From Gemmatimonadota bacterium (GTDB lineage Bacteria; Latescibacterota; UBA2968; UBA8231), in assembly GCA_038153405.1 (NCBI GenBank), contig JAYOYH010000012.1, positions 1-64,000 of the forward strand: a stretch of DNA of 64,000 nt. Reading direction: 5' to 3'. How positions within the stretch are numbered: the stretch's first letter is position 1; every line of letters starts with the position of its first letter. This document shows positions 23,127 to 44,756 of this stretch, piece after piece. The notes under the pieces were generated by a model, which saw nothing but the letters and a program-made list of their open reading frames with translations, made no database searches and was not told the DNA's origin. The position numbers and the translations under genes are program-made.

Positions 23127-23140
23127 CGGCAACAGCAGCG

Positions 23141-23196
23141 TGCAACAATGCAACTTTACGTTGCAATATGTCGCCCTACATGCAGCATTGTGCATC
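23141..23196. promoter_or_regulatory. Putative enhancer (bEBP upstream activating sequences)
   Basis: Clustered TGCA elements, including the palindrome TGCAAC-N5-GTTGCA (23149-23165) and ATGCAGCATTGTGCAT, about 80-130 bp upstream of a sigma54 motif. Confidence 0.5.
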
Positions 23197-23273
23197 ATTT
23201 ATTTTTTAAAATACAAATAAGCAAGATTTTGTTTTTTATTGCTTTACATTCTTTTTTACAATAAAAAAAACGC

Positions 23274-23289
23274 TGGCATACGTCTTGCA
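23274..23289 (+). promoter_or_regulatory. Sigma54 (RpoN) -24/-12 promoter
   Basis: TGGCA-TACGTC-TTGCA, with GG at 23275-76 and GC at 23287-88 (canonical spacing). Preceded by an A/T tract. Confidence 0.8.
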
Positions 23290-23353
23290 GTAATGGTAGC
23301 AACCCGCTGCGTTTACACGCAGTGCCAATACTTTTACCCGTGGAGAACGCGCC

Positions 23354-23542
23354 ATGAAACGCGAGCGCTGGATTCGCCTGATCGCCGGCACCTTTGTGAT
23401 GGCTAGCTTGGCTTTGGGACACTTCGTCAATCCCTACTTCTACCTCTTTACTGCCTTTGTCGGCCTCAACCTCTTCCAGTCCTCGCTGACGCAGTGGTGT
23501 TTAATGGACGATATTCTGCGCAAAGTAGGGGTGCGGGGATAG
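23354..23542 (+). CDS. DUF2892 (YgaP-like) small membrane protein
   Basis: ER.IRLIAG, FVGLNLFQS..T.WC.M; GGAG RBS. Confidence 0.9.
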   Translation: MKRERWIRLIAGTFVMASLALGHFVNPYFYLFTAFVGLNLFQSSLTQWCLMDDILRKVGVRG

Positions 23543-23552
23543 GAGCATTCAC

Positions 23553-23729
23553 TTGGCAGACCTAATAGCTATCGCACTTTTTCTCGGCGCCTACTACGCC
23601 CTACAGCGCTACCTACTTCCCTACTTTGGGGTCCCTACCTGAATGGCTCCAACGCTCCCGGAGGGAGATCAAAACGGAGTGGATGCCACCCGTGCGGAAA
23701 ACGACAAATTAGAGCGCGAGCTGCAGTGA
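23553..23729 (+). CDS. Small membrane protein with in-frame UGA (candidate selenoprotein, 58 aa; 29 aa if UGA is a stop)
   Basis: AGGAG RBS and TTG start. MADLIAIALFLGAYYALQRYLLPYFGVPT-UGA(23640-23642)-MAPTLPEGDQNGVDATRAENDKLERELQ. A SECIS-like hairpin follows the UGA. Absent from the ORF track. Confidence 0.7.
23646..23680 (+). other. Putative bacterial SECIS element
   Basis: Upper stem CTCCC-GGA-GGGAG (23655-23667) begins 12 nt after the UGA and has a G-led loop. Lower stem GCTCC/GGAGT. Confidence 0.6.
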
Positions 23730-23751
23730 GTCGCAGGTGCATCTTATCGAC

Positions 23752-24984
23752 TCAGTAGGGCCGCACCAAAAGGGGAATTTCCATCTCTGCCGCGGTTAGA
23801 CCACCGTGCGCACCGTAGTGAATTTGCTCGAACTTGCCGCGCTCGTACCACCAGACCGAATGCCCCTCGTGCGGCAGAATCACCAAGTCGCCAATGTGGG
23901 CGCTAAACGCCTCGCTCGGCAGGCCCGGTCCAAACAGGCCGCTCGCCACCAAGTCGGCGCAGCGCAGTACCGATGCCCTGCCACTCAAGCGCATCTCAAA
24001 AAACGCCTGTGCCTCGTCTAACAGCCCTTCTTTGATATAGAGAAACATATCGCGGCACGAACCGGCCGGCACCAGCAACTGGCCGCTGCCGCTGCGGCGC
24101 AGAAAGCGCTCGACGCCGTCGAACTCCGGTTCGATATTGAGGTAGATCGTCGTGCGCGGATCGACCGCGGCCATGCCGTGATCGGCGACTACGATGAGCA
24201 GCGTATCGCCGTCGACGCCCTCGCCAAGCACCTGCTCGGCCGTCGATAGAAAGGCATCGACTTCGGCGTCGATATGCGCTGAGTCGGGCCCCTGCACGTG
24301 CCCCACCTGATCGATGCCATCAAAATAGAAGAAGAAATAAGCCGGATCCGTCTCATCCCGCAGCCGCGCCTTGAGCGAGGTCAGCCCTTCGGCCAGCGTC
24401 CGATAGGGCACGACGTCGGCCCCGTCGTAAGTCAGCCGCGCATAGGGCGATATCAGGTGCAGGGCCGGCTGGAAGGCACACGAGCGAATACCCATTTCCT
24501 CCAGATCGCGGTAGATCGTCTGGGTCGGCAATATTTCTTCGGGCTCTATGTCGACCAGAGCGTTGCGCATCTTGGTTCCCACCGGCGAGAACAGCAGCGG
24601 CGCGATAATTTGATCGACCAGCGGCTCGTAGTACTGCCACTCGTACACACCGCTCTCTATCGGCGGCATGCCCGTGTGAATGCAGGTCACGTGGGCGGCG
24701 GTAGTAGAGGGAAACTGCGCGGTGATTTTTTCGGCGACACCCCCCTCGACAAAGCGGCGCAAAAAGGGGTTATCGCGCAGGCGGGGTTGGCAAAAGCGCC
24801 AACCAAAAGCGTCGATAAAAAGCAGCGCGACTTTCTTCCAGCGCCGGTGGAGCGGGCCGAGCAGTTGGCTCGACAAGCCGGGTCCACCCTGTCCGGTCAA
24901 TACGTGGCGCACGGTCTGCGGGAGGTCGGCAAACGAACGCGTCCCGTACTGCGGCAGAACTACCTCTCTGTCAAACACATGCAC
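23752..24984 (-). CDS. Alkaline-phosphatase-superfamily protein (nucleotide pyrophosphatase/phosphodiesterase-like)
   Basis: IDAFG, FPSTT, DQVGH, ADHG, HGG. Confidence 0.88.
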   Translation of the reverse strand: MHVFDREVVLPQYGTRSFADLPQTVRHVLTGQGGPGLSSQLLGPLHRRWKKVALLFIDAFGWRFCQPRLRDNPFLRRFVEGGVAEKITAQFPSTTAAHVTCIHTGMPPIESGVYEWQYYEPLVDQIIAPLLFSPVGTKMRNALVDIEPEEILPTQTIYRDLEEMGIRSCAFQPALHLISPYARLTYDGADVVPYRTLAEGLTSLKARLRDETDPAYFFFYFDGIDQVGHVQGPDSAHIDAEVDAFLSTAEQVLGEGVDGDTLLIVVADHGMAAVDPRTTIYLNIEPEFDGVERFLRRSGSGQLLVPAGSCRDMFLYIKEGLLDEAQAFFEMRLSGRASVLRCADLVASGLFGPGLPSEAFSAHIGDLVILPHEGHSVWWYERGKFEQIHYGAHGGLTAAEMEIPLLVRPY

Positions 24985-42489: not shown

Positions 42490-43728
42490 ATGGATTCCGA
42501 CCGCATGCTCGCGCCTGAAGAGGCGCGCGATATTGTTTTAGAGCACATCCATGCGCTGGGCGTTGAGCGCGTTGCCCTGCTCGATGCCGTGGGCCGCGTG
42601 CTCGCGCGCGACGTGCTGGCGCGCCGCGACAACCCGCCGCACGACAATTCGGCAATGGACGGCTTTGCCGTGCGCTATGCCGACGCGCAAGGTGCCACTG
42701 CAGAGAACCCGGTAACGCTGCAGATCATAGAGGACATTCCCGCCGGCAGCGTGCCGCAGAAGGCACTTGGGGCCGGACAGGCTAGCCGCATTATGACCGG
42801 TGCCGTCGTCCCGACAGGCGCCGATGCCATCGTGCCGGTCGAAGACACGCGCGGCGAGGGCGATCAGGTCTCCATCCTCGACGTCGACCAACTGGGTGCG
42901 CACATCCGCGCGCGCGGCGAAGATATGCGCAAGGACGCCCCCGTCTTGAAGGCCGGTCAGGCCCTTGGGCCCGGAGAAATTTCCGTGCTGGCGACGCTGC
43001 AGCAGAGCTTTGTCACCGTCTATCGAAGGGCCCGCGTGGCCATTATCACCACCGGCGACGAGCTCGTTGAGATCGAAGACGAGGTCGGACCGGGGCAGAT
43101 CGTCAACGGCAATACGGCCGCGTTAGCCGCCTTCTGTCGCGCGCACGGCGCCGAACCGCTCATGTTGCCCATTGCCCGCGATGACCGGGCCGATATTCGC
43201 CGCACGATAGAAGCGGCGCTCGATGCGGACATCGTGCTCTCTTCGGGCGGCGTTTCAGTGGGCGACTACGATTTCGTCAAAGAGGTGCTCGACGAAATGA
43301 ATGCCAAGACCATTTTTTGGCGCGTGGCCATGAAGCCAGGCAAACCGCTGCTGTTTTGCACCATCGGCTCGACGCCCTATTTCGGTCTGCCCGGCAATCC
43401 CGTGTCGAGCATGATGTCTTTTTTGCAGTTTGTGCGGCCAGCCCTCTACAAGGCTGGCGGCCATCCGCCCGTGGCCTGGCCGCTGCCGCAGGCCACCGCG
43501 CTGCTCGACAGCGCCGTCGACAACGACGGCAATCGCCGCAACTACATGCGCTGCAGGCTCTACTACTGCGACGAGAGCGGCGCGCTGCGCGCCGAAGTAT
43601 TTGCCCAACAGGGCTCGCATATGGTTTCGTCTATGATTGGCGCCAACGGCATCGCCCTCTTTGAACCCGAAGCGCGCGCGGAGGCCAACGAGCGCATTGC
43701 CGTGCAAATCATCGGTCCCATTATCTGA
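42490..43728 (+). CDS. moeA: Molybdopterin molybdotransferase
   Basis: SAMDGFA, IMTGA.VP.GAD, TGDEL, SGGVSVGDYD, KPGKP, GLPGNP. Confidence 0.96.
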   Translation: MDSDRMLAPEEARDIVLEHIHALGVERVALLDAVGRVLARDVLARRDNPPHDNSAMDGFAVRYADAQGATAENPVTLQIIEDIPAGSVPQKALGAGQASRIMTGAVVPTGADAIVPVEDTRGEGDQVSILDVDQLGAHIRARGEDMRKDAPVLKAGQALGPGEISVLATLQQSFVTVYRRARVAIITTGDELVEIEDEVGPGQIVNGNTAALAAFCRAHGAEPLMLPIARDDRADIRRTIEAALDADIVLSSGGVSVGDYDFVKEVLDEMNAKTIFWRVAMKPGKPLLFCTIGSTPYFGLPGNPVSSMMSFLQFVRPALYKAGGHPPVAWPLPQATALLDSAVDNDGNRRNYMRCRLYYCDESGALRAEVFAQQGSHMVSSMIGANGIALFEPEARAEANERIAVQIIGPII

Positions 43729-43745
43729 GAGGAGGCCCGTAGCCC

Positions 43746-44756
43746 ATGAACCGCCCCCCCGACCAATTCAAGTGCATTGCCGTAGCGCAGCTTCGCCGCT
43801 TTGCCGCAGCCTGTCTAAGGGCCAGCGGCATGACGTCCGAACACGCCGACCAGTTGGCTGAGCTGCTGAGCAACTCCGACCTACGCGGCGTGCGTTCGCA
43901 CGGCACGCGGCAGATCCTCGGCTATTGTGGTAGCCTGCGCGAAGGGCGCGTCAACCCGACGCCCGATATACAAATCGTGCAGGAAACCGACACGGCTATT
44001 CTCGTCGACGGCGACGGCGGCCTGGGCTACGCGCCGATGATGCACGCCACCGAACGGGCCATTGCCAAGGCGAAAGAGAAGAAAGTGGCTATTGGCGCTA
44101 CCCGTCACCACGGCCACTACGGCTCGGCCGGACACTACGTGCGCCGCGCCATGGAAGAGGGCTGCACCGCCTTTTCCGTGCAGGGTTCGCACCCGGCCCA
44201 CTTTGGCGAAGGCGGCGGCAACAAGGGGCAGTCCTCGGCCTATTGGGGCAACCCGCCCATCTGCTTTGGCTTTCCATCCGATGAAGAGCCGCCGCTCGTC
44301 CTCGATGCGGCAACCTGCATTTTGGCCGACTACCAGCGCGGCGACCAATTCGACGCACTGCAGTCGCTCATCCCCGCCGCCTTTTTTAAGAGCATGGGCT
44401 ACACGGGCGCAGCTACGGCGCTGGGCGGCACCTTTGTTGGCCAGAGCAACGCGGCTGCCCGCGCCGTCGAAGAAAAGTGGCCCGCCGCGCGCGGAGGTGG
44501 ACTGATTATCGTACTCGATATAGAGGCCTTTGTGCCGGCCGCAGAATTTCGCAGTGGCATCGACTTTCTCGTGCGCGGCGTGCGCGAAACGATGGAACCG
44601 CTGCCTGGCTACGACGAAGCGACGCTGCCTGGCACGGTCGAACACCGCAACCAGTTGGCCTACGCCGAAGAAGGCGTACCCTATGCGCTAGAAGATCTGC
44701 AGCGTTTAGAAGAATGCGGCCGCCTGTGCGGCATTGAACCGGAGTGGGCCCAGTGA
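43746..44756 (+). CDS. Ldh_2 family (malate/L-lactate/ureidoglycolate-type) oxidoreductase
   Basis: DLRGVRSHG, VDGDGGLG, H.G, GNPP, LVLD.AT, LPG..E. Confidence 0.85.
   Translation: MNRPPDQFKCIAVAQLRRFAAACLRASGMTSEHADQLAELLSNSDLRGVRSHGTRQILGYCGSLREGRVNPTPDIQIVQETDTAILVDGDGGLGYAPMMHATERAIAKAKEKKVAIGATRHHGHYGSAGHYVRRAMEEGCTAFSVQGSHPAHFGEGGGNKGQSSAYWGNPPICFGFPSDEEPPLVLDAATCILADYQRGDQFDALQSLIPAAFFKSMGYTGAATALGGTFVGQSNAAARAVEEKWPAARGGGLIIVLDIEAFVPAAEFRSGIDFLVRGVRETMEPLPGYDEATLPGTVEHRNQLAYAEEGVPYALEDLQRLEECGRLCGIEPEWAQ

Follow-up and report, generated by a model that had tools for sequence, protein, structure and literature searches.

A predicted single-helix membrane selenoprotein represents a widespread and apparently uncatalogued family

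The 64,000-nucleotide stretch of DNA analyzed here (the window) very likely carries a gene for a membrane selenoprotein of 58 residues and one helix. Its predicted ORF occupies 23553..23729 on the forward strand, starts with TTG and has its predicted Sec codon, an in-frame UGA, at 23640..23642 (residue 30). A Sec-containing product is very likely because this UGA aligns with the Cys of relatives and has a conserved hairpin behind it. The family to which the ORF belongs is real and widespread and appears to be uncatalogued; the recoding machinery is ordinary. A membrane selenoprotein of this length had been proposed in an earlier, sequence-only reading and is strongly supported by the comparisons that follow, although the T-U-M site named in that reading did not hold as a motif: the family shares U/C-x4-C, with a Cys 5–7 residues after the U in 50 of 66 loci.

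The open reading frame and its start signals

As that reading described, an AGGAG Shine-Dalgarno sequence (23541..23545, forward strand) lies 7 nt 5′ of the TTG at 23553–55, which opens a peptide with a single transmembrane segment; the first 29 codons are followed by the TGA at 23640–42, 28 further open codons and a final TGA at 23727–29. The AGGAG overlaps the TAG (23540–42) that closes the upstream YgaP-like gene, and translational coupling of the two genes is likely. Most relatives have ATG at the position of the window's TTG. The window sequence across 23553–23729 is reproduced without difference in two public DNA contigs, which probably stem from a single data set deposited twice; this indicates that the in-frame TGA is no assembly error. 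RNA-library contigs from one study span 23358–23611 and 23702–23887, leaving the UGA outside, and were not taken as transcription. No sigma-70 promoter-like site was found upstream of the locus, and its two terminator-like sites equal the chance level. The intergenic stretch at 23136–23350, between a cytochrome c assembly gene and the YgaP-like gene, is AT-rich; strain differences and two small insertions fall in or upstream of it, and none inside the two small genes. The final TGA (23727) was considered as a second Sec codon and rejected, since relatives close with TAG, TAA or a start-overlapping TGA.

The UGA aligns with cysteine in homologs

Among genomes of the phylum, a search with the single sequence matched 5 of 60 relatives, and a profile search extended over 168 genomes returned 10 carriers in 3 genera. 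All nine intact copies have TGA at the column of the predicted Sec, with 11–29 open codons after it. The remaining copy, in G019 (L042, 1501–1640), is broken by an early TAG and a frameshift with its TGA and hairpin intact; it lies within a decayed TolC/YgaP/MFP/RND operon, in a genome that retains selA. In metagenomes, scanning with alignment A2 confirmed 238 loci. Of the best 80, 79 are readable and all of them have TGA, the other being cut by a contig end, and neither TAA nor TAG was seen at the column. The terminal stops of 66 distinct ORFs are mixed, with 33 TGA, 18 TAG, 12 TAA and 3 running off the contig end.

A 57-row profile retrieved 291 database proteins. The column is occupied by Cys in 66 of the best 120 and by Trp in 2, and the remaining 52 stop precisely at this position; the Cys homologs are mostly C-M-x-x-x-C and continue in the same frame past the column. 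The pattern anticipated in the sequence-only reading, TGA or Cys and never TAA or TAG, is thus borne out in the loci examined, and the 52 proteins ending at the column bear out its expectation that gene callers would truncate the product at the UGA. An earlier search gave 22 proteins, 3 with Cys, 1 with Gly (P0023) and 18 ending at the column. The queries that ranked the metagenome and protein matches carried Cys at the column, and such a ranking can hide true-stop or other-residue forms. Other collections yielded little: a single-sequence scan of the genome collection gave only 3 weak Rhodococcus matches, none of 9 pattern matches in viral contigs was confirmed, and phmmer across cluster representatives found only 3 proteins. 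The ESM Atlas holds one unnamed 123-member cluster at both 0.90 and 0.85, which we take as a lead only. P0011, an unrelated-looking protein of 733 aa, shares a cluster with the Cys homolog P0009 (57 aa), probably as a clustering artefact.

The same data bear on whether the UGA might simply be a stop, in which case the product would be a 29-residue membrane or stalling peptide, perhaps with a separate AUG mini-ORF behind it, and the hairpin would have some other use. Gene callers do annotate 29-residue proteins, in 46 of 66 loci the codon after the UGA is AUG, and a frame of at least 14 codons is open after 64% of the ordinary TGA stops of this genome, so that an open frame alone was rejected as evidence. 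Against this, the 66 Cys homologs among the best 120 of 291 read on in frame with M-x-x-x-C kept, the codon after the UGA is not Met in 20 of 66 loci, and no TAA or TAG was seen at the column in the best 80 of 238 metagenome matches. We consider a true stop very improbable.

Reading of the UGA as Trp or Gly, through an altered code or readthrough without Sec, can hardly be credited. Its attraction is the two database proteins with Trp and the one with Gly at the column. The Trp proteins P0061 and P0131, however, match loci L094 and L068, whose DNA has TGA, and their Trp therefore looks like a TGA=W gene call; it is likely that gene callers switched the genetic code on these contigs. About 1040 long ORFs of this genome terminate at TGA, and the sense-codon counterpart of the UGA is Cys.

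A SECIS-type hairpin follows the UGA

Downstream of the UGA, CTCCC (23655–59) and GGGAG (23663–67) form an upper stem of 5 bp on the forward strand around a GGA loop (23660–62), the loop G standing at UGA +18 nt. The predicted fold adds a lower stem, 23646–50 with 23676–80 (element 23646..23680, forward strand). Both stems are present in the minimum-energy fold of 23640–23680 (−11.6 kcal/mol), and the upper stem by itself is worth −5.7 to −7.0 kcal/mol. The upper stem-loop and its SECIS geometry stand as first proposed; the enclosing lower stem, predicted in the window, is missing from the folds of L030, L031 and L032 and is therefore not a conserved part. When 40 nt 5′ of the UGA are included in the fold, the pairing probability of the upper stem falls to about 0.21 because upstream bases compete for pairing; we infer that a ribosome at the UGA would cover these bases.

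The consensus bSECIS, as given in the Fig. 2A legend of PMC13188914, has a loop of 3–9 nt, a stem of 4–16 bp and a free energy of −7.5 kcal/mol or lower; the same source places a G in loop position 1 or 2, 16–37 nt from the UGA. A script check of the window's element against this model returned agreement, with its GGA loop, 5 bp, +18 offset and −11.6 kcal/mol counting the lower stem. For comparison across loci, a hairpin was scored when its loop started at +16 to +26, with G in loop position 1–2, at least 4 bp and −5 kcal/mol or lower. By this test, 60 of 71 family loci have it (9 genome and 62 metagenome, a few sequences being in both sets), whereas among the ordinary TGA stops of this genome it follows 52 of 1040; the thresholds had been picked after family folds were viewed, and the loci are related. 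Only 14 of the 1040 ordinary stops have a hairpin at loop offset +17 to +19, and 30 synonymous-codon shuffles gave a hairpin in a mean of 9.5 and a maximum of 14 of the 71 loci.

Compensatory change points the same way. Within 10 close sequences, 4 of 6 tested pairs differ on both sides and 88% of cells pair; the covariation score is 0.519 vs 0.242 when shuffled, above all 500 shuffles in a test that is inflated by the kinship of the 10 sequences, and does not exceed 0.219 in slid controls. The earlier expectation that hairpin and downstream frame would be conserved was thus confirmed, with the qualification that what is kept is shape: offset and sequence differ among subgroups, from +17 to +24 with unrelated stems. 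Within the +24 subgroup of 23 loci, several pair types occur in the stem. Another subgroup (L059, L060, L061, L063 and L093) has an AGGU-loop hairpin at +17. No U-tract terminator was found at the hairpin, which argues further against a true stop. We conclude that SelB very probably recognizes the hairpin and places Sec at codon 30.

The genome carries Sec machinery

The sequence-only reading had made its case depend on selA, selB, selC and selD. In this genome (G000), selA, selB and selD all score above the NCBIfam cut-off, and selD (contig C77) itself contains an in-frame TGA followed by a hairpin with a GGUC loop starting at +18. This is the loop offset of the window ORF, and the shared geometry is a further point against a true stop. 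A formate-dehydrogenase-alpha-like gene (G000:C13, about 43274–44335, reverse strand; L159) has an in-frame TGA in a U-H-x-P context and, by inspection, a GGCC/GGUCU/GGCC hairpin with its loop at +19; it is a second ordinary selenoprotein of this genome.

Searches of this assembly, which is 93% complete, did not recover the fourth component, tRNA-Sec (selC), one of them having scored 150 of 387 candidates; this negative result counts in favor of a true stop. Of 5 other carriers tested, 3 have the gene (2 of 3 in the same genus), and it was not found in the other 2. tRNA-His is likewise absent from the ARAGORN listing of this assembly, and an assembly gap is the likely cause of the missing tRNA-Sec. 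All 10 carriers of the small gene in the phylum have selA, vs 131 of 168 phylum genomes overall, a co-occurrence that is weak because selA is common in the phylum and the carriers make up 3 genera.

Protein architecture and topology

Members of the family consist of one hydrophobic helix (about residues 1–18 in the window ORF), a conserved R-[WY]-[IL]-LP-x-x-GV-x-T block, the Sec or Cys, and a polar, unconserved tail. In the 16 of 66 loci that lack the near Cys, a Cys occurs further downstream in 9, as the last residue in 5 of them, and there is none in 7. The window's copy is of this last type, and no second Cys occurs in its lineage. A YgaP-like gene lies directly upstream in 5 of the 7 loci with no Cys vs 1 of the 50 with a near Cys, a link that comes mostly from one lineage. 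In the tails of L079, L096, L098, L101, L105 and L108, which have no near Cys, a C-terminal Cys is frequent (G-R-C, P-H-C, G-G-C) and looks like a relocated resolving residue.

In 131 of 133 proteins residues 1–5 are neutral or acidic, and in 131 of 133 the block that follows the helix carries a charge of +1 or +2. The positively charged flank of a membrane helix lies on the cytoplasmic side (the positive-inside rule), so this charge pattern would have the Sec face the cytoplasm. The predicted topology is therefore probably N-out/C-in, with the Sec just beneath the membrane.

Gene neighborhood

Directly upstream of the ORF lies the gene for a 62-aa, two-helix membrane protein of the YgaP-like/DUF2892 type (PF11127; 23354..23542, forward strand), likely a partner in the same operon. 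Its Cys49 is invariant in 14 aligned copies, and in the loci examined the codon at this conserved Cys was TGC or TGT in 36 of 36 pattern matches, a redundant set. Of the 9 intact phylum copies, 8 have a YgaP-like gene immediately upstream, as does the broken copy in G019. In G035, G159 and G117 the gene order is TolC, YgaP-like, small gene, MFP and RND permease, and in G116 the small gene precedes MFP. In the window, the YgaP-like/small-gene pair is preceded by hemA and a cytochrome c assembly gene; the pump is elsewhere: G000:C70:3050–10337 (reverse strand; L136) is a thioredoxin-TolC-MFP-RND permease-PAS sigma-54 activator operon in which TolC abuts MFP, the two small genes missing exactly where relatives have them. 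In L046 and L050 a sigma-54 activator lies upstream instead. In more distant members of the phylum (L152, L153, L155, L154 and L157), the YgaP-like gene is followed, without an intervening small gene, by a different gene that is transporter-like or encodes a secreted protein.

These arrangements invite comparison with AcrZ, a small membrane protein bound to the RND pump AcrB, in the account of PMC7267776, and the small gene might encode a selenoprotein of that kind, its helix docking on the RND permease and its Sec acting as a redox switch of the pump. Beyond that precedent, the protein is similar to AcrZ in size and in having one helix, its gene lies between TolC/YgaP and MFP/RND or before MFP in the four genomes above, and the same permease, present in 16 of 168 phylum genomes, occurs in all 9 intact carriers, even where unlinked. 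In the window's genus (8 genomes), permease, YgaP-like and small gene are found together in 5 and none was detected in 3. Yet 7 of the 16 permease carriers have no detected small gene, with YgaP running directly into MFP in 5, and the small gene is therefore dispensable to the pump; two of these, G013 and G027, also lack selA. On relocation of the locus within this genus, the gene stayed with YgaP and not with the pump. Only 6 of 67 metagenome loci have an RND permease nearby, and there is no sequence match to AcrZ or to any solved chain. We regard a pump-docking role as decidedly unlikely.

Metagenome neighborhoods were called from 143 entries, mostly from 283 selected ORFs, scanned against Pfam. 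Across 67 loci, 27 of them shorter than 2 kb, the recurring neighbors are YgaP-like (12), FmdB zinc ribbon (9), DUF302 (8), OsmC (7), thioredoxin (6), RND (6) and TlpA (3). At least one YgaP-like, DUF302, thioredoxin, TlpA, OsmC, FmdB, RND, rubrerythrin or CGGC neighbor is present in 38 of the 67 and none in 29, DUF302 and FmdB having been tallied by recurrence and not by redox role. The FmdB-type zinc-ribbon gene adjoins the small gene in L054, L055, L058, L072, L076, L083, L085, L087 and L119; the FmdB-type family is itself among the selenoprotein families listed in PMC13188914. In L059, L060, L061, L063 and L093 the gene has a 4Fe-4S protein together with a small membrane protein on one side and an ECF sigma factor on the other; ECF sigma factors are neighbors in L079, L113 and L114 as well.

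With such neighbors, the Sec and a downstream Cys might instead be ligands of a soft metal or metalloid (Cu, Hg or As) and pass it to the RND pump or to a sensor. The U/C-x4-C spacing, the extra Cys in some tails and the RND exporter, ArsR, zinc-ribbon and ECF sigma neighbors would suit metal binding, and the transporter-associated selenoproteins covered in PMC13188914 are mostly tied to metal or metalloid resistance. It is nonetheless unlikely: the adaptor and the permease fall below the CzcB, CusB and CusA model cut-offs (126 permease residues tested), the window's lineage offers a single Se/S ligand, and thiol-redox genes recur more than metal chaperones.

Discussion

We lean toward a redox role. 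Judging from the motif, the predicted topology and the neighboring genes, the protein would present a small redox-active selenol at the cytoplasmic membrane face, within a sulfur- or thiol-stress module of YgaP, RND and thioredoxin. SelB-dependent insertion of Sec would yield a membrane-anchored selenol, which could attack an oxidized or persulfidated thiol, or sulfane sulfur. A resolving Cys would then release the Sec; in most homologs this may be the Cys 5–7 residues downstream, and in the window's lineage, where there is none, Cys49 of the adjacent YgaP-like protein could serve. Thioredoxin would recycle the Sec/Cys pair, and the TolC/MFP/RND pump may export the product. In E. coli YgaP, a membrane domain of this kind is linked to a sulfurtransferase, as described in PMC4730233. 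The fullest form of this proposal, in which a widespread single-pass family of about 45–75 residues with a new UxxxxC motif acts as a selenium redox switch or sulfur carrier on the YgaP/RND module, with the pair split between Sec30 and the YgaP-like Cys49 in the window's lineage, is tentative and more doubtful.

The window ORF resembles bacterial SelB/bSECIS genes in having a UGA aligned to Cys, a hairpin in the coding region, a 3-nt loop with G first, and selA, selB and selD in the genome. Its product is a single membrane helix and not a thioredoxin-fold or enzyme domain. Selenoproteins K and S also cross the membrane with one helix and carry Sec in a disordered cytosolic segment; they are eukaryotic and longer, with a 3′UTR SECIS and Sec near the C-terminus, and the likeness is architectural only. 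The YgaP-like/DUF2892 protein and the window protein are both tiny, with a membrane-proximal Cys or Sec site and a similar helix end (I-L-x-[KR]-x-G-V), but the former has two helices and the window family one. Homology between them was rejected: PF11127 is found in 0 of 57 members, and hhalign gave a probability of 7.7% over 13 columns. AcrZ likewise shows no detected sequence similarity to the family, and it is not known to carry a redox residue.

Searches for an existing description were negative within their scope. NCBIfam (June 2026) gave no match at E≤0.1 for the window protein and 3 genome homologs, and none above cut-off for 10 further homologs at E≤1; Pfam had no match to the family, and PDB none at E≤1. 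Table 1 of PMC13188914 (2026, 119 families) contains no corresponding entry by name or motif and no single-helix UxxxxC protein. Its small selenoproteins KCU-star (NF033934), dual CXXC (NF041197), SaoC (NF040734), TsoA/B/C/X/Y and hypothetical DG/DW/DF are likewise short and hypothetical, are cut at the UGA in gene calls and are identified through Sec/Cys pairs, but have other motifs. The available excerpts of PMC12013277, PMC13326102 and PMC13745706 contain nothing resembling the family. A literature search on selenoprotein with UxxxxC/CxxxxU/UxxxxU, RND, DUF302, DUF2892/YgaP, rhodanese or thioredoxin found no description, and an earlier listing is possible (Haft and Tolstoy 2025, Deng et al. 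2026, supplements).

The family thus adds an apparently common, hidden member to the bacterial selenoproteome, represented by 291 database proteins, many as 29-residue fragments, with a family name absent from the best 120 of them. Its UxxxxC motif and its architecture of one helix plus tail are new relative to the 119-family list in Table 1 of PMC13188914. The Sec/Cys column marks what is very likely the working residue of the family, and its neighbors would tie selenium to a recurring YgaP/DUF302/thioredoxin/RND module.
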